Below, in pieces: positions 1,158 through 53,890 of a DNA stretch of 64,000 bases; position 1 is the first letter of the stretch, and the number at the start of each line of letters is the position of its first letter. The stretch is taken from NCBI RefSeq assembly GCF_000027125.1, contig NC_017627.1; one strand, given 5' to 3'. The notes beneath the pieces are model-generated. The model had not been told where the DNA came from, made no database searches, and saw nothing but the letters and a program-made list of their open reading frames with translations. This stretch comes from Escherichia coli 042. GTDB lineage: Bacteria > Pseudomonadota > Gammaproteobacteria > Enterobacterales > Enterobacteriaceae. The translations under genes were made by a program, and so were the position numbers.

Positions 1158-1186
1158 GCCTCCTCTCTGATGGAGGCTTTTTTTTA
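1158..1186 (+). terminator. Hairpin plus T-run (plus-strand intrinsic terminator-like) abutting finO stop
   Basis: gcctcc...ggaggc stem followed by a run of 9 T on the plus strand. Confidence 0.35.
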
Positions 1187-1744
1187 TTTCTCATCAAGCA
1201 CGGCCTGAAGTTCTGCCTTTATCCGGTTCTGGCGGCGGATTTTATCCAGACGCGCTGCCGCATACGCTTCCTCCTCCTGAGAAATATGCTCCGTCACATA
1301 CCCTTCCGTGTCATACCGGCAGGCACCGGCTTTCATGGCACACAGATAGCTTTCTGAACGGGTGATGGCCTTCAGCGCCCTGCGCAGTTTTTTATGCGAG
1401 AGCGGGATATTCCGCTGCGCCACGTCTTCCAGTAACACGTCCCGGATACCGCAGGCCAGAAGCCGGGGCGTGTCACCGTCAAACAATCCCGGCCACCAGG
1501 GCTTCAGGGTGTTCACGGCCTCATCCAGTGTGGGCAGGTTCAGATAAATGGACAGCGCCTGTCTGGCCTGCGCTTTTTTTGCCGCCAGCTCTGCTTCCCG
1601 GGCTGCTTTCTCGGCCAGCTTCTGCTTTTTCACCTTCCACTTTGGTGGCGTGGTGACATTGATGATGGTTTTCCGGCTGCGGACAGGCGTCTCCCCTTCC
1701 GTTTTCCGCTTCAGTGTCAGTACCGGTCGCTTCTGCTCTGTCAT
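1184..1744 (-). CDS. finO: FinO fertility inhibition RNA chaperone
   Basis: 186 aa, [20 protein letters not shown]... near-identical to F/R100 FinO from memory; sits at distal end of tra operon. Confidence 0.95.
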
Positions 1745-1798: not shown

Positions 1799-2545
1799 TC
1801 ACAGCGCCAGAACGCCCAGCACAGCCAGATGACAGGCGTAGAATACCGGGAAAAAATCCCCGGGCCAGAAACGGGGTAATGATTTTCCTGCACACGACAC
1901 CAGACCAACGGTCAGCACCGTCATCACAAGACCGGCCACCGCCGCTGCATCACTGGTGGCAAGGTTAAGCGCCGGAATAACAGCCAGCAGGCAGGCGACC
2001 AGCGCCAGACGTTCCGCTCTGTCTTCCGCCCGGTACAGCCGGTGGCTGACTGCCAGCATCAGCAGCCCGGCAATGCCGTAACTGGTGCCGGACAAAGGCC
2101 CCCACAGGGCCATCAGAAGAATGGCCGCTGCTGTACGCCACCCACTGCGCGTTTCACACCACGTCAGCACCTGTGCCGCCACTGCAAAGGCAAACAGGAT
2201 ATTCCCCTCATACCAGGGAAAGCCTGCCAGATAATATGCGAACTGGGCAATAATTCCCCATCCCCACAGCCGGTTAATGGCTGGTTGCCGGATATGCGCA
2301 TGACGGGACAGATTCAGCCCCCACACCAGGGCAAAAAGCGGAAAGGCTCCTCGCCCGGTCAGAAACATCCATTCCTGCTTCAGCTGGAATATCAGATTGA
2401 TGTGGTCCAGTACCATCAGCACCAGTGCCACCGTTTTGATGATATCCCGCTGTCCGGGTGACCAGACCAGAAACGACTGCAACCAGGTATCGGTCCGTGC
2501 AGCCAGTGAATCGTTACGTGTCGTGTTCGTGTTATCCGTTGTCAT
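1799..2545 (-). CDS. traX: TraX pilin N-acetylase
   Basis: 248 aa polytopic membrane protein in conserved position between traI and finO. Confidence 0.92.
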   Translation of the reverse strand: MTTDNTNTTRNDSLAARTDTWLQSFLVWSPGQRDIIKTVALVLMVLDHINLIFQLKQEWMFLTGRGAFPLFALVWGLNLSRHAHIRQPAINRLWGWGIIAQFAYYLAGFPWYEGNILFAFAVAAQVLTWCETRSGWRTAAAILLMALWGPLSGTSYGIAGLLMLAVSHRLYRAEDRAERLALVACLLAVIPALNLATSDAAAVAGLVMTVLTVGLVSCAGKSLPRFWPGDFFPVFYACHLAVLGVLAL

Positions 2546-2564: not shown

Positions 2565-5500
2565 TCAGTCTCCGCCCAGGGTTTTCTCTTTCTGCAGGTC
2601 ACGGACCATATCCCGCTCCATCTGCTGCAGACGCTCCTGCAGCAGATTTTCCCGGGCAACCTCCCGGACCGCTTCCCGCTCCCGTTGTGATTCACGCAGC
2701 ACACTCTCCGGCAGTGCGGTTTCCCGTTCAGAAGTGGCAGTCCGGTCACGTTCCTGCCCGGCAATCTCCCTGACAGCCTGCTCTGTTTTGCCATCCGGCA
2801 GGTCAGGTTTGTTCTCTGCCATTTTACGGACAATTTCATCTGCGCGACGTTCCGTTTCACGGCGGATGGCCTCTTCAGCCTGCCGCTGTGCCAGCACTTC
2901 AGCTGTAACCGGTTCACCATTTCCGGCCCCCGGCTGGACGCTGTTATCCGGGATATCCCCCCACACGCGGCCACCGGTGATGGCACCGGGATTCCACGGA
3001 CGACCTTCACCGGCAATTCTCACCACCACACCGCTGTCAGGATTATCACGGGCAATCCGGACACCATCCTGCATATTATCAGCCAGCAGGCTTTCTCCGT
3101 TACGGCTGCCCTGCAGGGCCACGAACTGCGCATCCCCGCTGCCCTTCACCCGTCCTTCACCGCTGAATCCCCGCAGCCCGTTTCCGTCATCCGTGGTCAG
3201 TGGGTTCAGCCAGATACCGGCGGACCTGCCGTTACGGTCAAACGCCGGCAGTGCCACATACGGCTGCGGATATTTACGTCCCGGTGCAATAAACCGTGCA
3301 GGGCTGTCTCCCCCGGCCAGCCCTGCCTGACGGAGAACGGCACGGCCTGCCGCCACGTCCCGCAGTTCCCGTGCCGTACTGAACAGCCGCTCTGCATTCA
3401 TGACCTCCCGGTCCGGTTTCGGTTCAAACACATCGTGGGCTGTTCCTTTCTGTACGGCATTGTTAATGGCATCCGTCCAGCCCTGACGGTTATCGGTGTA
3501 CACCTGCACATGCTGCTTCATACGCGACAGGGCCACGTAGGCTGACTCAAAGCCTGCCATCAGTTTCCGGTTACCTTCCGTGCCTTCAAGCGCGATGGCA
3601 AAGGTTTCACTCGCCCCCTGCGCACCGTGGGCGGTGATGGCATAGGCCAGGTCAATATGTTGCTCTGCCCGCTCCTGTCCGGGGCGAATCACCCGGGTCT
3701 GCTGTCCGTCCGACAGCGTGACACTGTCACCGGAAACCGCTGTCACCGTCCAGACGCTGTTGGCCACATAACCGCGCTCCCGGTCACTCTTCGTGAAGCG
3801 CATCCGGTCGCCGGTTCCCACCCGGATGGTGTCCGGGGTGTACAGTGTGACGCCTTCAGCCACCGCCTCCCGGGGCGAAATCAGCCGCGTGTTACCTTCC
3901 GCATCCTGCAGGGTTATCAGCCCGTCATCCTTACTGACACCGGCAATCCGGTGATACACATTATCCACCAGGGCAAGGGCATCCGGGTTATTCTCCCAGG
4001 TGGAGAGACGACGCAGTTCCCCGTCGCGTATATTCGCTGTATTCAGGACAGGCACCATGACCTGCTCTTTCCCCAGCTCACCGGCCTTTTCCCGTGCATC
4101 ATGAATCATGCTGTTCAGTACGCGCCGGTCCTCATTCAGGTGCGTGACAATCAGCGTCTGCTCCCGTGCTTCCGGTGTCCTGCCGGTATAGTCGCGGACA
4201 ATGGCTTCATACAGTGTCATGGGGACATCCGGGAAAGCCTCGCCTTTCAGCATCGCCTTCTGCTGCGCTTCTGCCAGTTTCGCTTCCTGGCTGTGACTGA
4301 ACTCCGTCACGGAGTGCTCCGGTGCCCATGCGCCCTCCAGACGTGGCACCTGAGACGGTTTCACACTCTCAAGCCCGGACAGTGCCCTTTCCACATCCCG
4401 GTTAATCAGGCTGTATACCGCCTCCCGCAGTTCCGGCGTCTGACGCACAATCTCCTTCATGATGACCACATCGGCAGCACTGCGCGTCTGCTGGAGACGG
4501 AAAGGCTGACCGGGCGCGATGGCCTGCAGCTGGTCCGTGTCACCGCTGGCCACAGCACGACCGCCACCGGCCGCAATCAGGGCGTATGCCCGTGCCATGT
4601 CGGTATTGCCCACCATTGAGCTCTCATCGAGCAGGAACAGCGTGTTGCTGAAATCCGGCGTTTCTCCGCTGCGCTGCTGCAGCTGCGTGTCATGCAGAAA
4701 GGACGCCAGCGTCTGTGCATCCACGCCGGCGCTGCGCATCTCACCGACCGCACGGTGCGTGGGCCCCAGCCCCACAACTCGGGGACGCTCACTCGCCGGC
4801 AGCATGTTCACGGCTGACATCACCGCCCGGAACTGTGTGGTCTTACCCACACCGGCATAACCCTGTACCACCGTGAAACGGTCGGACGTTTCCAGTATCA
4901 TGCGGGTGGCGGCACGCTGTCCTGATGTCAGTTTCTCCATGAGTTCGCCAGGTACTCTCTCCATCAGCGGCGTGACCGCCTCCTTACCTTCGAGAATATG
5001 GCGAAGAATGCTCTTTTCTGCCTCATACGACGCACGGGAAACCAGCAGGCCTGTGCCATAGCCTTTTGCCACATCCACATACAGTAAATCACCGCGTTTT
5101 ATCTGCGCATTGATTTCCCCTCCCAGTTCAGTAAAACCGGTTCCTTCTGCAGCAAACGACTTCGCCTCTGTCAGCAGGTCCACCATGCTGAAGGCCAGGT
5201 TTTTACTTTCCAGCACAGGAAGGGCCAGATGAATGGCCTGGTGTGCCGGCGTGTGCAGCCCGGCTTTCTGCAGACTGATAGCGGTTTCCAGCGATGTCTC
5301 ACCGGCCCGCGCCTTTATCTGCTCAGAAACCACCGTAAAGGAGGGATGGCGGGCAAGTTTTTCCGCAGTACGGGTTTCATCCAGTGAGGAATACAGCCGG
5401 ACATCACGACCGCTGCGGGCCAGACCGTTCAGGGTGGCGTTGTCCATTGCCATCTGTGTGACGGAGGCAAACACCGTCGCACTGTCACTGACGGAATGCC

Positions 5501-7835
5501 CGGGCGTTTCCACCCAGCCGTTCTCCAGCTTCAGTGCCGTGAACGGTGAATCGCTCACAGGCAGGGAGGCCGGTTCAGCCCGCCCCGGCACAACAACCGT
5601 CATCGCATCTTCACTGACGGATGCCACCTGCAGGCGGTCACCGCCGGAGACGCGGAGTCCGGGAATTTTCCCTGTCACCCTCAGTCGCTCGCCGTCTGCC
5701 ACCGGCATTTTTTCCGGCCGGAACAGCGACCAGCTGCTGTCCAGGGAGGAAATACGCACCACCTGCGTTTCGCCCTGCGCATCCCGCAGGGTCAGGCTGT
5801 GACTCTGCGCTGTCACCCGGTCTATCACATAGCGGTCATGACTGCGTGTCTCCGGGTTCCACTGCTCCATCACCATCCCCGGTCGGTACATATCCCGCAG
5901 ATAACGGCTCCGGCTGTCCAGCCAGACCGGTGACAGTGCAGTCATGGTCACCTCAGGGTGTCCGAGCACGCCCTGCGTTTTCAGCTCACTGCGAATGGCC
6001 TGTGTCAGTATGGCCTGTTCCCGTACCCCGCTGACCTGTGCCACGCTCTCTTCTCCGGCTTTCACGCTGGCCGCAAAATCTCCGGCCAGCCGGGCATAGC
6101 GGACATTACGGTCCGGTTCACTGATGATGGTGGCCGGTCGCTGTTCTCCGCCCTGCCAGCGATATGTGTTCACCCCGGCATCCTTCATGGCCATCAGCGC
6201 ACTGCCTGTACCGGTTCGCTGCCCGCTGTCGGTTATCAGGACCTGTACGTTATGACGTGCGGCACCGTCCAGCAGGGTTAACGTCTCTTTCAGGGAGAGT
6301 TTTTCGCCCTGGTCGACGATAACAGTACTGCCCGGCGTGAAGGCCATGCCCTCCTGCAGCTGACGACGTCCGGTTATCAGCTCACCGGACAGCCGTTCAT
6401 CCTGCTTCAGGTTCATCTGCGAGCGACGGTCAGCGGCGATAATCTGCATCTCCCGCCCCTGCTCCCGGGCCATCATGACCAGTTCAGCCACCCGCTCACG
6501 CTGCCCGGCTGCACCGCCCTGCCCGGAAACAATGGCCAGCGACGGACGGTCCTGTGCCAGAACACTGACCGCATCGCTGTAACCAGCCGTCCGGGGGACA
6601 CTTTTCTCCGGATGTACGGTCACCCGGTTCTGTTTCATGATGTCACGACTGAGTGCCCGGACGGACAGCTCATCGAGCACATGAATTCCTGATGTGAACA
6701 GCCCCTTCTCACGGTCGAGGGGGATAAGCTGCTCACGACTGATGGCCTCATCGATACCGGCGCGTGCCCGTTCAATCACACCATTTTCCGGCGGCAGTAT
6801 ACCGACCGTTCTGGCCAGCACGTCCGTGTACGTAAACTGCACTTTTCGTTCACTTAATCCGGCAATGGCCTGTGTCACCGCCTGCTGCACATCCGGCCCC
6901 TCCTGTGAAACAGCCCCGGGCGCCTGCGTGTGGGTCTCCGCACGCTGATCCGCCGCGTCACGATATGCCCGGATGTCGAACCCGGTTTCCTTCAGCGTCT
7001 GCATCCATTCAGCCATTCTGACTTCAGGATCGACGTGCTGTTTGGATTTTCGCGTATCCAGTGCCGCCACATCCCGGGATTTCAGTGAGGCCCCTTCACC
7101 GACGGCCTCCCGGATAGCCTGTGAGCGTCCGGAGAAGGCTTCCACCGGTACGCCCGGCATCTCCCACATACCGTGCTTACCGACCACTTCGGTTTCATAG
7201 CCCAGTGCCTCAACCTGCTCTTTCAGTTTTTCCCGGTAGAGCCTGCCAAAGGCAATCTGATTAGCGTACACATTCTCAATGAACCCCGTTTTCCCCACTT
7301 TGTCACTGCTCAGTGTCTTCCACTCACCGTTATGCTGCGTGACATTAGCCACCACCGCATGCGTGTGTAACTGTGGTTCCTGATCGCGACTGGTGTCGTG
7401 GTTAAACAGTGCCATCACCAGATTACCGGTCAGTACCGTTTCTGACTGTCCGTCCGTCATCACCCGTGTGGAGGCCAGCGCCTCCACCTGACGAACAGCA
7501 AAGTCCACGGCCTGGTTATGTGCATCAATCAGGCGCTTATCGCCACCTAACATGGCCATCATGGAGACACTTTTGGGGGCGGAGAAGGTCAGGTCGTAGC
7601 CGGGACGATGCTTATTACTGCCATCCTGCATGCGGCTTAGATCCGCTCCGTCCGGCAGCCTTCCCTCCAGAAGACGGGTAAAAACATCCTTATCGACACT
7701 GCCCTGCAGTCCCAGCTGTTCAGCCCCCCTGCCGGCCCAGCGTTCTCCCATGCTGCCCAGTACATAGTAATTATCCTTGTCGGTATAATAGTTACCGGCA
7801 CTTCCGGCCGATCTGACCTGCGCGATACTCATCAT
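2565..7835 (-). CDS. traI: TraI relaxase/helicase
   Basis: 1756 aa, same length as F TraI; N-terminal relaxase region, helicase Walker A GYAGVGKT, long C-terminal domain. Confidence 0.97.
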   Translation of the reverse strand: MMSIAQVRSAGSAGNYYTDKDNYYVLGSMGERWAGRGAEQLGLQGSVDKDVFTRLLEGRLPDGADLSRMQDGSNKHRPGYDLTFSAPKSVSMMAMLGGDKRLIDAHNQAVDFAVRQVEALASTRVMTDGQSETVLTGNLVMALFNHDTSRDQEPQLHTHAVVANVTQHNGEWKTLSSDKVGKTGFIENVYANQIAFGRLYREKLKEQVEALGYETEVVGKHGMWEMPGVPVEAFSGRSQAIREAVGEGASLKSRDVAALDTRKSKQHVDPEVRMAEWMQTLKETGFDIRAYRDAADQRAETHTQAPGAVSQEGPDVQQAVTQAIAGLSERKVQFTYTDVLARTVGILPPENGVIERARAGIDEAISREQLIPLDREKGLFTSGIHVLDELSVRALSRDIMKQNRVTVHPEKSVPRTAGYSDAVSVLAQDRPSLAIVSGQGGAAGQRERVAELVMMAREQGREMQIIAADRRSQMNLKQDERLSGELITGRRQLQEGMAFTPGSTVIVDQGEKLSLKETLTLLDGAARHNVQVLITDSGQRTGTGSALMAMKDAGVNTYRWQGGEQRPATIISEPDRNVRYARLAGDFAASVKAGEESVAQVSGVREQAILTQAIRSELKTQGVLGHPEVTMTALSPVWLDSRSRYLRDMYRPGMVMEQWNPETRSHDRYVIDRVTAQSHSLTLRDAQGETQVVRISSLDSSWSLFRPEKMPVADGERLRVTGKIPGLRVSGGDRLQVASVSEDAMTVVVPGRAEPASLPVSDSPFTALKLENGWVETPGHSVSDSATVFASVTQMAMDNATLNGLARSGRDVRLYSSLDETRTAEKLARHPSFTVVSEQIKARAGETSLETAISLQKAGLHTPAHQAIHLALPVLESKNLAFSMVDLLTEAKSFAAEGTGFTELGGEINAQIKRGDLLYVDVAKGYGTGLLVSRASYEAEKSILRHILEGKEAVTPLMERVPGELMEKLTSGQRAATRMILETSDRFTVVQGYAGVGKTTQFRAVMSAVNMLPASERPRVVGLGPTHRAVGEMRSAGVDAQTLASFLHDTQLQQRSGETPDFSNTLFLLDESSMVGNTDMARAYALIAAGGGRAVASGDTDQLQAIAPGQPFRLQQTRSAADVVIMKEIVRQTPELREAVYSLINRDVERALSGLESVKPSQVPRLEGAWAPEHSVTEFSHSQEAKLAEAQQKAMLKGEAFPDVPMTLYEAIVRDYTGRTPEAREQTLIVTHLNEDRRVLNSMIHDAREKAGELGKEQVMVPVLNTANIRDGELRRLSTWENNPDALALVDNVYHRIAGVSKDDGLITLQDAEGNTRLISPREAVAEGVTLYTPDTIRVGTGDRMRFTKSDRERGYVANSVWTVTAVSGDSVTLSDGQQTRVIRPGQERAEQHIDLAYAITAHGAQGASETFAIALEGTEGNRKLMAGFESAYVALSRMKQHVQVYTDNRQGWTDAINNAVQKGTAHDVFEPKPDREVMNAERLFSTARELRDVAAGRAVLRQAGLAGGDSPARFIAPGRKYPQPYVALPAFDRNGRSAGIWLNPLTTDDGNGLRGFSGEGRVKGSGDAQFVALQGSRNGESLLADNMQDGVRIARDNPDSGVVVRIAGEGRPWNPGAITGGRVWGDIPDNSVQPGAGNGEPVTAEVLAQRQAEEAIRRETERRADEIVRKMAENKPDLPDGKTEQAVREIAGQERDRTATSERETALPESVLRESQREREAVREVARENLLQERLQQMERDMVRDLQKEKTLGGD

Positions 7836-10186
7836 CAGAAATCATCTCCCGGCTCAACATCCTCCCCACGCTCCCGGTGCACATTAATGTTCACCTCTTC
7901 ACGACGCTGCATCTGCTGCTGGATGTCCGGATGATTTTCCTGTTGCCATGCCTCATAAGCGGCCATATCCACCACTTCACCGGATTCACTGATCCCGGGT
8001 GGCAGTTGCTGTTCCATCTCTTCTTCCGGTTTCATTTTCAGCTCCTGCTCGATCCCCCCTGCCGGAACACTCACACCTGCATCTGACTTCTTATCATTGA
8101 TGACAGAAGACACTGGCTGTTGTGACTGTTGTGACTGTTGTGGCTGTTGTGGCTGTTGTGGCTGTTGTGGCTGTTGTGGCTGTTGTGGCTGTTGTGGCTG
8201 TTGTGGCTGTTGTGGCTGTTGTGGCTGTTGTGGCTGTTGTGGCTGTTGTGGCTGTTGTGGCTGTTGTGGCTGTTGTGGCTGTTGTGGCTGTTGTGGCTGT
8301 TGTGGCTGTTGTGGCTGTTGTGGCTGTTGTGGCTGTTCAGCCTGAGTTACGTCTTCTCCGGAGGCAACCTCCGGTTCGAAGAGGCTGGCCATCTGGCGAC
8401 CTTCTGCTTCCCTTGCAGCAAGTACGGCACTCAGACGGTTCTCCATTTCCGGGTTGATGTCACGCGGAATAAACTCCGGAGCGACCTTCGGTCGTGTCTG
8501 ATATTTCAGGGAGAGTTTGACTGCCGGATACGGTCCGGGCAGAGTGACATAGCAGGTCAGATCCGGCAGAGACTGAATGTCGGAATAACTGACCAGCGTC
8601 TGACGCTCCATATCCTTACCGGTCGATACCCCGTCACGTACCGGGTCAGCACCGTAAGAATACTGCTCGCTGGCTTTCAGGTGCTCTTTCTCACCAATTT
8701 CACCGGCAGCGAACTCTGCAATCTTATGGCTGGGAGAACGGAAAAAGGCACGGGTGTTCATGACGTCAAACAGCGTGGCCGCCGCTTTCTCACCGTAGAT
8801 ATCTTCCAGCTGGGCATAGGACTGGATACCAAACACATAACAGCCACCGAACTTACGGGCTTCCGGCAGGATCTCCACCAGGTCCGGCAGTTTGTGTAAC
8901 GTGGGTAACTCGTCACAGAAAAACCACACACGACGATTACGGTTTTCTCCCATTGCCAGCAGACCACGAATGGCAATGGACAGCCACATGGAGATCACCG
9001 GCTTCAGGGAGGCATGGGTGTCGGCATTCGACGAGATAAACAGCCAGCCGTTTTTCTGATCTTCCCGGACACCACGCATCCAGTCACGGATGGTAAAAGA
9101 CTCACCGTTATGCTCAATCCCCTGCAGGTAACGGATGGCTTTCACGTAGTTGGTCAGCACAGCACGGATGGAAATCGCCGTTTTCTCAATTTTCTCTTCC
9201 ACCAGGTTGGCTGCCGGTGAATTACGCAGGAAGGTACGCAGTTTTTCAATTTTGATGGAAAGCAGTGTGTCCACCAGTTTGCTGTAGCTGCGGTTGGGGT
9301 CATTACGCATCAGGTACGCCGCTTCCGCAAAAATGGTACGTCCTGAACCCTGCCAGAACGGGTCCTCTTTTGTGCCCATCGGGATCAGCGTGTTCGCGGT
9401 ATTATCAAAATCCGGCTGTGTCAGGCACTCCTTCCACAAATCCCAGGCGGCACAGCGGGCATCCAGCGGATTCAGGATTTTATCGATGGAGGGATCATAG
9501 TAACTTTTAACAAATTCCCCCGAACGGTCATAAATCACCACCATATCTCCACGCTGACGGGCGTAGTTGGCCAGACGACGGATAACTTCCGACTTACCGG
9601 CCCCGACCGTGCCGTGCAGACAGAAGTTCTGGATTTCGGAATCCCGGATAATCGGCAGGTCGCCAATCCGTATATCGGAGTCCTTGCCGTCTTTTTTCAG
9701 CATCCGGGCAACATCTTTCGGGTTTTCCGTCAGCTGACGACCACCTGTAACTTCATTTTCGCTCTGTTGTTTACCCTGACGCCCCAGAATCCAAGAGACA
9801 ACAAAGAAGGTGATCAGGCAAATAACCAGTGCCACGACAGACGCCAGAACGAATGCGGACCATAGCTGCTCACCGCACCAGATCATATATTTATCATGCA
9901 GTACCTGGGCAGCGTTCATCCGGAAGGTTTTGCCGTAATACTGGATCTCATATACTGGCTGGGACTTGATTAAATCCCGCATGCCTTCCAGCGTGGTACA
10001 CCACCAGTAAATACAGCCGTTCACAAACGTCTGCCAGCTTATTTTTACCCATAAAATCAGACCAACGAGTATCCAGAAAAAAATAAACAGGCAGTAAAGC
10101 ATGATATTGGCGATCTGGCTGAACATGCGGATACGCATGGACGCAATCTGACCGCCCTGGGTCATATCCTTTGCGTTAAAACTCAT
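7835..10186 (-). CDS. traD: TraD type IV coupling protein with expanded C-terminal QQP repeat
   Basis: 783 aa, [22 protein letters not shown]..., Walker A GTVGAGKS; stop overlaps traI start (TGATG). Confidence 0.97.
8116..8333. repeat. Tandem 9-bp repeat (CTGTTGTGG/CTGTTGTGA), about 24 copies, encoding (QQP)n in TraD
   Basis: Perfect head-to-tail 9-mer array visible directly in the sequence. Confidence 0.95.
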
Positions 10187-10236: not shown

Positions 10237-10977
10237 TTAATTCACAGAAACAGACCAGGTGTACCCTGTATGCCGGTGGTGATACCCGCCTGCAGTCCTG
10301 CCGGAAGAGACCTTCTCTGTAACAATGTCAGTCAGGCGCAATACTTCAGACCAGTCACTCCCGTGCGGAAACTGGATCTGAATAAAAAGGCGTACCCGTT
10401 CACGGTGATCCAGAACTGTGTCCGGTTCATAAAAACGGCCACTGTCAGGAGAAACACGGGACGTTTTATTGATGAGATCATACTTATCGGCAGGAGACTG
10501 CGATGACAGAGACCAGGTAATATTTTCGCCCTGATGACCATCAATACGACTGCTCCCCGGCGTCCATGCAATTTCCTGCGCACTCGCCACGATGATCTCC
10601 CTGGAGACTTCTGCCAGCTTTCTGGGTGTACCGAATACCGGTGCCAGCACACACAGGGACAACAAATTACAGCTGACCGCTTCCGGTTTAAGCGAATTGC
10701 TCCCGGATTTTTCAGGAAAAGATATTTTTGTCAGTATTTCAGTTAATTCCTTATGCCTGAGAGAATTAATAAAGTACATGATAAGCATCATGAGAAACAA
10801 TATAACAATAAGCCCTCCGATAACCACTAAAAGGTTAGTATCAATATTATTGCTGTACAGATAGTCTTTAGTGGTCACTGTATTATCCTGTATCACCGGG
10901 GGGTATTCAGTTACAGGCTTCTCAGTAAATTGATTATTCTCACCAACATATTCAGCGATATTGTCTGATGTCATAAT
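10237..10977 (-). CDS. Hypothetical single-pass membrane protein inserted between traT and traD (not a canonical F tra gene)
   Basis: ORF 10237-11040; likely start ATG at 10977 with GGAG about 9 nt upstream; one TM helix [25 protein letters not shown]; AT-rich 5-prime half. Confidence 0.5.
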
Positions 10978-31699: not shown

Positions 31700-32011
31700 C
31701 TATTTAATCCACTGCCGGAAACACGAATCGGGAACATTATGAAAAATACCGCGCAGCAGGGCTGTTGGCATATACCAGTAAATCAGGTCACGTAACCAGG
31801 AACTGCCCCGCCCTTTTTTCAGTTTTTTAATCCCGAAATAAACCAGAACCGCTGCACCAATACCGAACAGATATTTTGATGTTGTGATACCCCAGCCAAT
31901 ACAGACTGCTGCGGGGATCAGTTCATCCAGTGGCAGGCCAAACCAGCGGCTCTGGTTGGTCAGTGTTTCCGGGAAACGATATTTCTTAAGTTTATTCTCG
32001 TCTCCCGACAT
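31700..32011 (-). CDS. traL: TraL
   Basis: 103 aa small membrane protein following traA. Confidence 0.9.
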
Positions 32012-32025
32012 CGTTTTATTTCCTG

Positions 32026-32391
32026 TCAGAGGCCAACGACGGCCATACCCACAGCAATAAATACAGAGATGATGGCAAAACCGGCCAGGAACTTGACGTT
32101 TTTGGTCATCATGTACATGACCGCACCGACCAGAACTTCAGCCAGAACAACCCATTTAACAACACTGGAGTCCTTACCGAAGGTCGCCTTAACCGTGGAG
32201 TTACCACTCTGCATCAGGTCCTGACCTGCCCCCTGGGCGGCCATTGCCAGTTGCGGGAAGAACATCATCAGAACAGCAGCAGGGATCACAGCGCGAACCA
32301 GGCGAAGCATATTCAGACGAGTGAATTTAGAAAAAAACGATTTCTTTTCAACGGGCGCAGAAGCACCCTGAACACTTAAAACAGTATTCAT
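32026..32391 (-). CDS. traA: TraA propilin (F-pilin)
   Basis: 121 aa, leader plus mature pilin ...[67 protein letters not shown]. Confidence 0.97.
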
Positions 32392-32424
32392 ATGATTCCT
32401 CTGTTTAATATTGATAGATAAAAA

Positions 32425-32652
32425 CTAAAGTTCTTTAAATGTTGACTCGTTCTCTTCGATCACCTCCCTGAATATTTCTTCATTATAGAAATCAGGAAAC
32501 CGTTTCAGATGATCTCTGAGACGGATCTGAACCTCTATAGTTTTACTTCTACCGCTACGATCTTTGGCCCGAATAAGTTGGTTATTTGTATCTTCATCGA
32601 GATACACTGAGACTGTTCTGCTTATCCCGCCTCTCGCGTTACGCCTCCTCAC
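32425..32652 (-). CDS. traY: TraY (R100-type, 75 aa ribbon-helix-helix oriT accessory protein)
   Basis: 75 aa basic protein immediately upstream of traA. Confidence 0.85.
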   Translation of the reverse strand: MRRRNARGGISRTVSVYLDEDTNNQLIRAKDRSGRSKTIEVQIRLRDHLKRFPDFYNEEIFREVIEENESTFKEL

Positions 32653-32745
32653 TCAATTCACCTCTGTTTCCCGACTAATAAAATCATGATTGCACAGAAA
32701 CCGACAAAAAAAAACACACCAAAATTGGCGTGCCTTATTTAACAT

Positions 32746-33432
32746 TTACTTAACACCATAAAATTCACGAATTATACTTAATAGCGAATCTATTTCTCCT
32801 TTATAGATACATGACACTCTGAATAAATCAAAGTGTTCAAAAAATTCTTTTATTTTCCGTTTAACTGGTTTAATTCGATCCTCAGATGCTCTGTCTGTAA
32901 TACCCAACTCTCTGGCAATTGTTGCGTGACCAACACCCAGCATATAAAAAGAGAAAACAACCAATGTCCCTGGAGAAAGATCATTCCATATCGTTAATTT
33001 ATCAGAAGTATTTGTATTACTTCCACTCTGATTTAACGCAAAAAATGGATAATCAGGAAACGGATTAATTTGCCATAAAACAACAGATTCGTCATTATAA
33101 AAAGAAACATTCTCCATCCTTATCTGATAGATTTCGCCATGAAAATTAAAACGACGACAAAATGCAGAGCCATGTCCAAGAGCCTGGCATTCCAGTTCAA
33201 GTGATGAAAGAAAAATTTCAACCTGCAGACGTATATAACTCTCTCCGGATAAGGGTTTATCTTCTCTGGAAAAGAGTTCAATAAAAGCCCCATTGGCATA
33301 AAGGATTTTCCGGTTTTTGTTACGGACACAAACCGGAACGGGAGAATTTCTGTAGATATTCTGAACGTTAAGGATGTATTTATTTACAGATTGACTGTTA
33401 AGTGGCCTTTCTCTACGATCCAGCGCACACAT
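32746..33432 (-). CDS. traJ: TraJ transcriptional activator of the tra operon
   Basis: Start at ATG 33432 (MCALDRRER...) preceded by GGAGG; the longer ORF to 33492 is probably leader. Confidence 0.85.
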
Positions 33433-33505
33433 AGGAACCTCCGTTAAGGATTCTATGGACAGTCGATGCAGGGAGGTCTGAACTCCCTGCATCGGCGATT
33501 TTCAG
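33427..33505 (+). ncRNA. finP: FinP-like antisense RNA (antisense to traJ leader, RBS and start)
   Basis: Plus strand carries the complement of the traJ RBS, then stem-loop gcagggag...ctccctgc and a U-rich tail; ends approximate. Confidence 0.5.
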
Positions 33506-52595: not shown

Positions 52596-53594
52596 ATGAA
52601 GAAGGTCCTTTGCGCGTTAGGCTTGATGTTCACCGCCGTCAGTTCCGCGCTGGCAACAACCTACCCCCTGACGATTGAAAACTGCGGCTATCAGGAGACC
52701 TTCACCCGGCCGCCGGAGCGCGTGGTCGCGCTGGGGCAAAATACGGTCGAAATTCTGCTGCTGCTCGGGCTGCAAAAGCAGGTGGTCGCCAGCGCCTTCT
52801 GGCCGACCAGCGTTTTACCGCAGCTGGCTGAGCAAAACGCGAAGATTAAAACCTTGACGGTGGAAATTCCGAGCCTGGAATCGGTGCTGGCGCAAAATCC
52901 TGATTTCGTTCCCGCCCAGTTGCCGCTGCTGCTGGGGCCGGAAAGCAAAGTCGCCAGGCGTGAAGATCTCGCCACCGTCGGCGTGAACAGCTACGTCTCA
53001 CCGGGGATGTGCGCCACCAAAAAGGCCACCGGCGATATGTACGGCAGCCGGAAAAAGCTGTGGGATATGACCTGGCTGTATCAGGAAATTAGCGATTTTT
53101 CCCGCATTTTCAACGTCGAAGATCGTGGTCAGGCGCTGATTGCCGATTTCAAAAAACGTGAAGCCGACCTGCGCCAGGAGTTTGGTAAAAGCAAAAAGGA
53201 TCTCTCCTTCGTCTTCTGGTTCTCCAGCGCCTCACCTTCGGCCGATGCCTATGTCGGCGGCAAAAACAGCGCCTCCGGATTTATCGCCAGCGTGCTGGGC
53301 GGACATAATGCGATTACCTCCGAAACCGAGTGGCCCACGGTGAGCTGGGAGAGCATTATTGCCGCCAACCCGGATGTGATCGTGGTCGCCAGCCTAGATC
53401 GTAACCGCTGGGCGCTGGATAAGGCCGAGGAAAAGATCAAATTCCTCAAAAGCGATCCCGCCGTCAGCCAGCTGGAGGCGGTGAAAAAAGGCCATATCGT
53501 GGTCATGGACGGTCAGGCGATGAATCCGACCATTCGCACGCTTTACGGCGCGGAGCAGGTGGGCGAGCAGCTGAGAAAAATGGGGCTGAACTGA
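52596..53594 (+). CDS. ABC transporter periplasmic substrate-binding protein (iron/siderophore-type)
   Basis: 332 aa with signal peptide; GC-rich; followed by FecCD-like permease remnant. Confidence 0.8.
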   Translation: MKKVLCALGLMFTAVSSALATTYPLTIENCGYQETFTRPPERVVALGQNTVEILLLLGLQKQVVASAFWPTSVLPQLAEQNAKIKTLTVEIPSLESVLAQNPDFVPAQLPLLLGPESKVARREDLATVGVNSYVSPGMCATKKATGDMYGSRKKLWDMTWLYQEISDFSRIFNVEDRGQALIADFKKREADLRQEFGKSKKDLSFVFWFSSASPSADAYVGGKNSASGFIASVLGGHNAITSETEWPTVSWESIIAANPDVIVVASLDRNRWALDKAEEKIKFLKSDPAVSQLEAVKKGHIVVMDGQAMNPTIRTLYGAEQVGEQLRKMGLN

Positions 53595-53890
53595 TGAGCG
53601 TCGCCGCGATTGAGACGCGCCGCAGCATACTGCTCACCGGCTGGTGTGTACTGGCAGCGATCGTGCTGGCGCTGGTGATCGCTGTGGGCGTCAGCGTTGG
53701 CGAGCTGGCCATCCCGCTGCAGAATGTCTTTTATGCTATCAGCAACAGAACCGGCTTAACCGCTGAGCCGCTCAACCGTATCTATGAGAGCGTTATCTGG
53801 GATTTCCGCCTCAGCCGCGCGCTGGTCGCCGCCTGCTGCGGCGCCGGCCTCGCTATCTGCGGTGTTGTGCTGCAAAGCTTGCCGGCATGA
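53594..53890 (+). pseudogene. FecCD-family ABC permease, N-terminal fragment only
   Basis: 98-aa ORF with permease-like N-terminus that switches frame at about 53887 into an ATPase C-terminus. Confidence 0.6.

Follow-up and report, generated by a model that had tools for sequence, protein, structure and literature searches.

The window, by which we mean the whole 64,000-nucleotide stretch analyzed, very probably includes the distal part of a transfer operon of the ordinary IncFII F-like type (MOBF12 / MPF-F). This operon is encoded on the minus strand, is mosaic, and has the default junction between traD and traI, the exact place where approximately 0.7 kb of vapBC is found in F and in about one in four of its relatives. 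Both the traD–traI overlap and the mosaic tra region are ordinary and already known. What changes is how the state of this junction is to be read as a marker of plasmid lineage.

The traD–traI junction and its translation

The minus strand of the window reads TGATG from position 7837 to position 7833 (CATCA on the plus strand, 7833–7837). The stop codon of traD (TGA, 7837–7835) and the start codon of traI (ATG, 7835–7833) have base 7835 in common, a 1-nt overlap, and the ORF list likewise places this base in both reading frames (Table 1). Searches with tblastn found no match to VapB, VapC or trbH-region sequence anywhere in the window. An earlier note on this DNA had claimed that the traD stop overlaps the traI start with no trbH between them; the sequence, the ORF coordinates and the tblastn results all agree with this.

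The predicted TraD matched profiles NF010254 (1669 bits, cut-off 1221) and TIGR02759 (834 bits, cut-off 521) and was 93% identical in amino acids to TraD from R100 and 88% identical to TraD from F. It is longer than TraD from F (717 aa) or R100 (738 aa) because of the repeat that encodes its QQP tract. The copy number of this repeat is polymorphic, with coverage starts that shift in 9-bp steps between plasmids. The predicted TraI, whose N-terminus was read over 17 residues, matched NF011300 (3771 bits), NF010263 (3328 bits) and the MobF profile NF041492 (298 bits), and was 97.4% identical overall to TraI from F and 97.1% identical to that from R100. When compared in 400-bp tiles, the first 400 bp of traI were 97.8% identical to F versus 91.3% to R100. 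The last 299 bp of traD were 97.0% identical to F, and the 3' end of traD is nearer to F than to R100.

Table 1. Features of the transfer region in the window.
Feature	Coordinates	Strand	Basis or remarks
finO, uninterrupted 186-aa ORF	1184..1744	−	96.8% to R100 FinO
traX, R100-like	1799..2545	−	aa identity 98.4% to R100 vs 91.1% to F
traI, relaxase/helicase, 1756 aa, F/R1-like allele	2565..7835	−	profile matches
TGATG stop/start overlap	7833..7837	−	also in R100, Klebsiella pBS326-3, Enterobacter pC45-p2
GGGAG, Shine-Dalgarno-like (putative function)	7846..7850	−	within last traD codons
traD, type IV coupling protein, 783 aa, C-terminus …EPGDDF then TGA	7835..10186	−	profile matches
9-bp tandem repeat, 24.9 copies, encodes TraD QQP tract	8114..8337	−	
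ORF between traT and traD, R100-type accessory, absent from F	10240..10974	−	96.7% aa to R100 245-aa hypothetical protein
traA, propilin, 121 aa	32026..32391	−	93% to F, 90% to R100
traY, 75 aa, GTG start, short form	32425..32652	−	annotated traY in 99.8%-identical plasmids
traJ allele, 248-aa ORF	32746..33492	−	annotated PAS-domain protein in near-identical plasmids
traM, 127 aa	33626..34009	−	residues 2–56 = PDB 1DP3

No tra-strand promoter or terminator was found at the junction. With neither element between them, traD and traI share a transcript. Ribosomes that end traD would then sit at the start of traI, where a weak Shine-Dalgarno-like GGGAG also lies upstream, so that synthesis of TraI is probably coupled to translation of TraD. 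Such coupling is plausible from the overlap. Two observations speak against it: the 10 nt between GGGAG and the traI ATG, a marginal spacing as read from the sequence, are long, and we found no hairpin masking the traI start that could enforce coupling. RNA structure at the junction is not unusual (z = 0.52).

It is possible, although the less likely reading, that the overlap has no functional consequence: translation of traI would start independently at a ribosome-binding site of its own, and TGATG would reflect no more than compact packing of genes. The GGGAG ahead of the ATG and a traI start that is not occluded by RNA structure are consistent with this, as is F, where traI is expressed at 715 bp from the traD stop and has a similar AGGG 10 nt upstream. 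Overlaps of 1 or 4 nt are also frequent in the operon (traC/trbI, trbI/traW, traW/traU, trbC/traN, traH/traG). Against independent translation stand the suboptimal Shine-Dalgarno spacing and the conservation of the exact pentamer even where the flanking DNA and the protein it encodes have diverged. This alternative bears only on mechanism and leaves the anatomy given above unchanged.

Distribution of the direct junction and nature of the F insert

The overlap is not a product of chance; the same arrangement occurs in R100, in PLSDB records and in diverged F-like plasmids. Among the 3964 PLSDB records that matched a 120-bp junction probe, 2995 (~76%) have the direct TGATG junction, whereas the F-type insert was found in 1156 of 4213 PLSDB records (~27%), a minority state that includes F, pSLT-type and Shigella pINV-like plasmids. 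The direct junction is not tied to one traI 5' allele; it was seen with both (identity classes of ≥97.5% and 89.3%, at full coverage). Matches to the junction probe include at least 1427 plasmids at ≥99% identity and approximately 2600 at ≥95%, while the band of 80–90%, to which the R100-like allele class belongs, has approximately 1306. The outgroups, Klebsiella IncFIIK (pBS326-3) and Enterobacter (pC45-p2), also have TGATG. In these plasmids the flanks have diverged in DNA and protein, yet the pentamer is kept and a G-rich tract lies upstream at the place equivalent to that in the window. The direct junction is thus the default, majority state of the F-like family and is probably ancestral, from which we infer an insertion into F rather than a deletion in the lineage of the window. 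The direct junction is shared by approximately 76% of the plasmids matched and by the outgroups, so it cannot serve to diagnose R100 or R1, and the proposal in the earlier note that the lack of trbH indicates an R100/R1-type operon does not hold.

We checked the reference F sequence (NC_002483) for a direct traD–traI junction and it does not have one; 715 bp separate the two genes. This segment holds a 239-codon ORF on the tra strand, the historical trbH, so the earlier note was right that F carries trbH at this place. The ORF begins at a TGATG that is a relic of the traI start, and its end overlaps the displaced traI start in an ATGA. In current annotation the same segment is vapC/vapB, encoded on the opposite strand. 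VapC is a tRNA-fMet endonuclease. An antisense vapBC between traD and traI, in a fixed geometry, is found in F, pSLT-type, E. albertii, Klebsiella and Shigella plasmids. The pSLT-type copy of the insert is at the same site and only 85% identical to the F copy, a divergence that marks the insert as old. From its sequence, trbH of F is most simply read as a frame that is open antisense to a vapBC toxin-antitoxin cassette. Pullinger and Lax reportedly noted in 1992 that vagCD has homology to this region of F. In the literature searched we found no earlier explicit statement that trbH is antisense to vapBC/vagCD. The gene has been described as the least conserved of the tra region, occurring in 8% of 256 MOBF12 plasmids (PMC5102898).

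We examined whether the openness of the trbH frame is a sign of selection. A null model in which the codons already present are permuted among synonyms is too conservative, as TTA, CTA and TCA do not occur in vapC. When codons were resampled from F tra usage, the frame was open in 10% of trials for F and 8% for the pSLT-type insert. Of four vapBC loci that are unrelated and lie outside this context, two also had a fully open antisense frame. Based on these results, openness of the frame was rejected as a sign of selection.

A 4-bp direct repeat, ATGA, lies on either side of the insert in F and fits target-site duplication or microhomology deletion alike. An alternative is that the junction in the window is secondary, with vapBC/trbH lost from an F-like ancestor by a precise 716-bp deletion between the repeats. 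Such a deletion would give exactly the sequence of the window and regenerate TGATG. The insert is ancient, judging by the divergence between the F and pSLT-type copies, and the traI 5' end and traD 3' end of the window are nearer to F. However, the diverged outgroups have the direct TGATG, and the direct junction occurs in so many plasmids with the same allele, counted above at ≥99% and ≥95% identity, that no new deletion is required. Homologous recombination in the flanking tra genes, signs of which run through the whole mosaic, also explains F-like flanks beside a direct junction. We therefore regard a secondary deletion as improbable and retain the direct junction as the probable ancestral state.

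Another reading concerns the approximately 27% of F-like plasmids with vapBC, where trbH could be more than a relic of annotation and act as a translated bridge over the antisense cassette, one that carries ribosomes from traD to the displaced traI and so preserves coupling. If this were true, the window would represent the uninterrupted, ancestral coupling of traD to traI. We hold this to be very doubtful, and the evidence does not favor it. An artefact of assembly or reading, or called ORFs that are not real genes, is already refuted: we found no point in its support, both ORFs match equivalogs over their full length and keep the gene order of F and R100, and the identical junction occurs in thousands of independent records.

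Alleles of the tra region and comparison with F, R100 and R1

The gene order from traM to traX–finO is collinear with F and R100, running from 34009 down to 1187 in the window. Along it, 400-bp tiles that are closer to F alternate with tiles that are closer to R100. Together with the per-gene identities and synteny against both plasmids, this bears out the earlier suggestion of a mosaic tra region. The best matches to the region as a whole, in PLSDB and among complete E. coli genomes, reach about 98%. The mosaic comprises an apparently R1-type block (traM/traJ/traY), F-like blocks (the traA body, traE, trbA, central traG and the traI 5' end) and R100-like blocks (traP through trbD, traN, trbB/J/F, traH, traS, the ORF between traT and traD, traX and finO).

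Residues 2–56 of the window TraM are identical at all 55 positions to PDB 1DP3, which we take to be the DNA-binding domain of R1 TraM. By comparison, the whole protein is 78% identical to TraM from F and from R100 alike. The window TraJ has no meaningful similarity to TraJ from either F or R100 (~25% in a partial match to R100). The window TraY was 49% identical to R100 TraY globally and 55% locally, and 47% identical globally to F TraY. R1 TraY is short, at 75 aa. R100 TraY is also 75 aa long, whereas F TraY is annotated as a long (duplicated) protein of 133 aa. The use of a 75-aa TraY as a mark of the R100/R1 type is thus supported in part: its length equals that of R100 TraY, but its sequence is only 49–55% identical. 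On sequence comparison, the traM/traJ/traY module is a third allele, neither that of F nor that of R100, and the match of TraM to 1DP3 suggests that it is apparently R1-type. The window TraA is almost F-like, as had been noted, although its mature N-terminus (14 residues) is distinct.

The transfer operon of this plasmid is typical of mosaic IncFII/F-like systems and has the default junction; the junction as such matters little. The rule drawn from it can be corrected: the presence of vapBC marks a subset formed by F, pSLT and pINV, and the absence of trbH marks no R100/R1 lineage. Better predictors of oriT/relaxosome specificity and of regulatory cross-talk are the alleles of traM/traJ/traY and traI, which in the window are an apparently R1-type TraM and an F/R1-like TraI relaxase domain. 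In annotation, trbH should be taken as the frame antisense to vapBC. The window has no homologue of the vapB or vapC of the enteric VapBC / MvpAT / VagCD cassette.

Compared with R100 (NR1, NC_002134), the window has the identical TGATG overlap, the ORF between traT and traD, an ORF between traU and trbC (94%), a long TrbD, and R100-like alleles of traN, trbB/J/F, traH, traX and finO. Its TraS is 79.5% identical to that of R100 and has no match in F. R100 has neither artA nor trbG; in the window trbG gave no match and artA only a 14-aa remnant. By contrast, R100 carries four ORFs between traR and traC, as well as a hydrolase gene that separates traX from finO, and the window lacks all of these; its trbA is F-like (91% to F vs 56% to R100). 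The window also differs from R100 in its longer QQP tract and, as given above, in traM, traJ, traY and the traI 5' end; for the specificity genes traM, traJ and traY and for the relaxase domain of traI, its alleles are not those of R100.

The window shares with F its overall synteny, the close identity of TraI including a 12-residue terminus, a 121-aa TraA, highly similar traL, traE and traK (≥98.9%), the F-like trbA and the placement of traC directly after traR. It differs from F in that F has vapC/vapB (trbH), the longer annotated TraY, artA and trbG, and is without the ORFs between traT and traD and between traU and trbC. In turn, no similarity to TraJ or TraS of F was detected in the window. 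The likeness to R1 is that of the TraM DNA-binding domain, presumably represented by 1DP3, together with the length of TraY.

The traD-traI junction

Bases 7833-7837 of the window read CATCA on the plus strand and hence TGATG on the minus strand, where the stop codon of traD (TGA, 7837-7835) and the start codon of traI (ATG, 7835-7833) overlap by one base. Base 7835 is common to both ORFs in the ORF table, and TraD and TraI each far exceed their NCBIfam equivalog cut-offs. The sequence and the ORF coordinates thus confirm the overlap reported in the earlier note. Elsewhere in the tra operon of the window, stop and start codons often overlap by 1 or 4 nt (for example in traC/trbI, trbI/traW, traW/traU, trbC/traN and traH/traG), and because of this we regard TGATG as typical operon packing.

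Between traD and traI we found no promoter-like or terminator-like site on the tra strand, and the RNA around the junction was no more stably folded than shuffled controls (z = 0.52). A GGGAG tract precedes the traI ATG by 10 nt; it is encoded within the TraD tail, by the conserved codons for Pro-Gly-Asp. Klebsiella and Enterobacter junctions have G-rich tracts at the same position although their TraD C-termini differ. The best-supported reading, we infer, is that traD and traI would be co-transcribed and that ribosomes terminating at the overlapping traD stop would help traI to initiate. That traI is initiated independently from its own weak SD is a live, though less likely, alternative.

TraD of the window also carries a very long QQP tract, encoded by a 9-bp tandem repeat. 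Through this tract the protein reaches 783 aa, versus 717 aa in F and 738 aa in R100. The coverage offsets of database matches step by 9 bp, showing that repeat number varies between plasmids, and the array in the window is among the longest in the matches listed.

Features of the window
Feature	Position	Strand	Remarks
traI	2565..7835	minus	1756 aa, TraI (ORF table, translation)
traD	7835..10186	minus	F-type TraD, ends …VEPGDDF* (ORF table, translation)
GGGAG tract	7846-7850	minus	
QQP-encoding repeat	8114-8337	minus	24.9 copies, in traD
traA	32026-32391		121 aa
traY	32425-32652	minus	GTG start
traJ	32746-33492	minus	248-aa ORF; PAS-domain protein in annotation of near-identical plasmids
Copies of F segment L001 3563-4012	42057-42507; 45442-45878		90.7%; 82.2% identity
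eit cargo	52596-55637		
IS3-family tandem with enclosing repeats	59000-63841		
1140-bp inverted repeats	59000-60139; 62702-63841		perfect
IS3-family transposase ORFs	60182-61072; 61421-62311		296 aa each

trbH and the two states of the junction

The earlier note stated that F carries trbH between traD and traI, and this was borne out by the F reference (NC_002483). There the end of traD (91957) and the start of traI (92673) do not join directly but are separated by 715 bp, which hold a 239-codon ORF on the tra strand as well as the annotated vapC (91966-92364) and vapB (92364-92591) on the opposite strand. R100 (NC_002134; traD 76250-78466, traI start 78466) has the same 1-nt overlap as the window. 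Alignment of the junctions showed that F retains a relic TGATG and that a 4-bp direct repeat, ATGA, brackets its extra DNA. By tblastn, no VapB or VapC homologue was detected anywhere in the window.

Aligned traD-traI junctions
Junction	Sequence
Window	…GGAGATGATTTC TGATG ATGAGTATCGCG…
R100	…GGAGATGATTTC TGATG TTGAGTTTCAGC…
F, left edge	…GGAGATGATTTC TGATG AACAGGTCAACTCC…
F, right edge	…GGGATATACGT TTATG ATGAGTATTGCG…

In F, the tra-strand frame beginning at the relic ATG continues without a stop for precisely 239 codons, and its TGA overlaps the real traI ATG (ATGA); the remaining two frames of the insert contain 10-11 stops. This ORF is the historical trbH. It runs antisense over vapC, vapB and their upstream region (31958-32677 in the F extract L001; 2785-3504 in a second plasmid extract, L003), and further copies lie in extracts L004, L005 and L006. 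All five sampled insert-bearing plasmids keep this frame open at the same length of exactly 239 codons, with coupling at either end; these copies have diverged, and the five are not independent. It is codon-aligned antisense to vapC, in which the codons TTA, CTA and TCA are unused. When synonymous codons were resampled from F tra-gene usage, the frame stayed open in 8-10% of trials, which is weak evidence for selection. As a control, two of four unrelated vapBC loci of other contexts also had a fully open antisense frame. These controls suggest that the open trbH frame is, in the simplest view, a side effect of how vapBC is encoded and does not reflect selection. That trbH acts as a 'translational bridge' is very improbable, and we found nothing in its support.

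We used two probes to determine how frequent each state is in PLSDB. With 120 bp centred on the window junction, where one-piece coverage denotes a direct junction, 2995 of 3964 matching records (76%) had the direct junction, and in about 960 the probe was split between two places. With a probe of the F insert extended by about 250 bp into each flank, 1156 of 4213 records (27%) carried the insert at >=80% coverage. Both traI 5' alleles occurred with the direct junction, one F/R1-like (>=97.5% to the probe) and one R100-like (89.3%, full coverage). Insert carriers include F and E. albertii, Klebsiella, Shigella pINV-like and Salmonella pSLT-type plasmids. The 720-bp stretch of the pSLT type is only 85% identical to F with identical geometry, so the vapBC insert is old. 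The TGATG overlap is also present in two more distant F-like plasmids, K. pneumoniae pBS326-3 and Enterobacter pC45-p2, where the flanks are thoroughly diverged and the TraI N-domain is ~77% and ~81% identical, respectively. The simplest reading of these sequences is that the direct overlap would be ancestral and that vapBC inserted once at the junction and later spread by recombination. In a published survey of 256 MOBF12 plasmids, trbH occurred in 8% and ranked lowest in conservation among the tra-region genes (PMC5102898). The earlier interpretation was partly supported: F does differ at this junction and R100 does share that of the window, but a direct junction is the default in the family, and the missing trbH is not diagnostic of an R100/R1-type operon.

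Other features of the plasmid

Two IS3-family elements stand in direct tandem (1239-bp spacing, repeats 98% identical), enclosed by inverted repeats, each of which codes for a fragment of an IS256-family transposase. Such a nested and tandem arrangement adjoining the IncFII replicon is unusual. The eit siderophore-transport cargo looks damaged. In it, eitA is intact, the EitC-like ORF covers only profile positions 86-251 of 251, and no eitB-sized ORF fits into the 293 bp that separate the two; next comes a gene for an MFS transporter. The F leading-region segment downstream of hok has two separate copies in the leading region of the window, perhaps as a repeated element for single-strand promoter activity or initiation.

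The tra region compared with F and R100

The earlier note had taken the 75-aa TraY as a sign of an R100/R1-type operon. Its length equals that of R100 TraY (133 aa as annotated in F), but its identity to the R100 protein is only 49% (global) to 55% (local), and to that of F 47-53%. TraM is 78% identical to both F and R100. For TraJ, no similarity to the F protein could be detected, and identity to R100 TraJ is only 25%. The traM-traY module occurs at >=99% identity in at least 313 PLSDB plasmids. Residues 2-56 of TraM are identical (55/55) to PDB 1DP3, which we take to be the R1 TraM DNA-binding domain, and because of this match the traM/traJ/traY module looks R1-type. TraA, described as almost F-like, has 93% identity to the F protein versus 90% to that of R100. 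The description is fair, except that the pilin differs from that of F in its variable N-terminus. The protein appears internally mosaic: the leader has R100 residues T3, E15 and V32, the first ~14 mature residues match neither F (AGSSGQDLMASGNT) nor R100, and the remainder is identical to F.

Per-gene identities and 400-bp tiles against F and R100 bore out a mosaic tra region, in which the closest reference switches repeatedly. Blocks closer to F are traA, traE (98.8% versus 92.5% to R100), traR to the traC 5' end, trbA, central traG and the first full traI tile (97.8% versus 91.3%). Those closer to R100 are the traB 3' end with traP (98.2% versus 74.5% to F), trbD, traN (99.8%, with no match in F), trbB/J/F, traH, traS, the traT-traD ORF, traX and finO. 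This combination of blocks has no verbatim counterpart in PLSDB or complete E. coli RefSeq genomes, where 12-25 kb queries gave no tra-region match above ~98%. The window lacks the traR-traC ORFs and the traX-finO hydrolase gene of R100, and trbG and artA of F. Mosaicism is the norm for F-like tra regions, and everything seen here is ordinary and already known.
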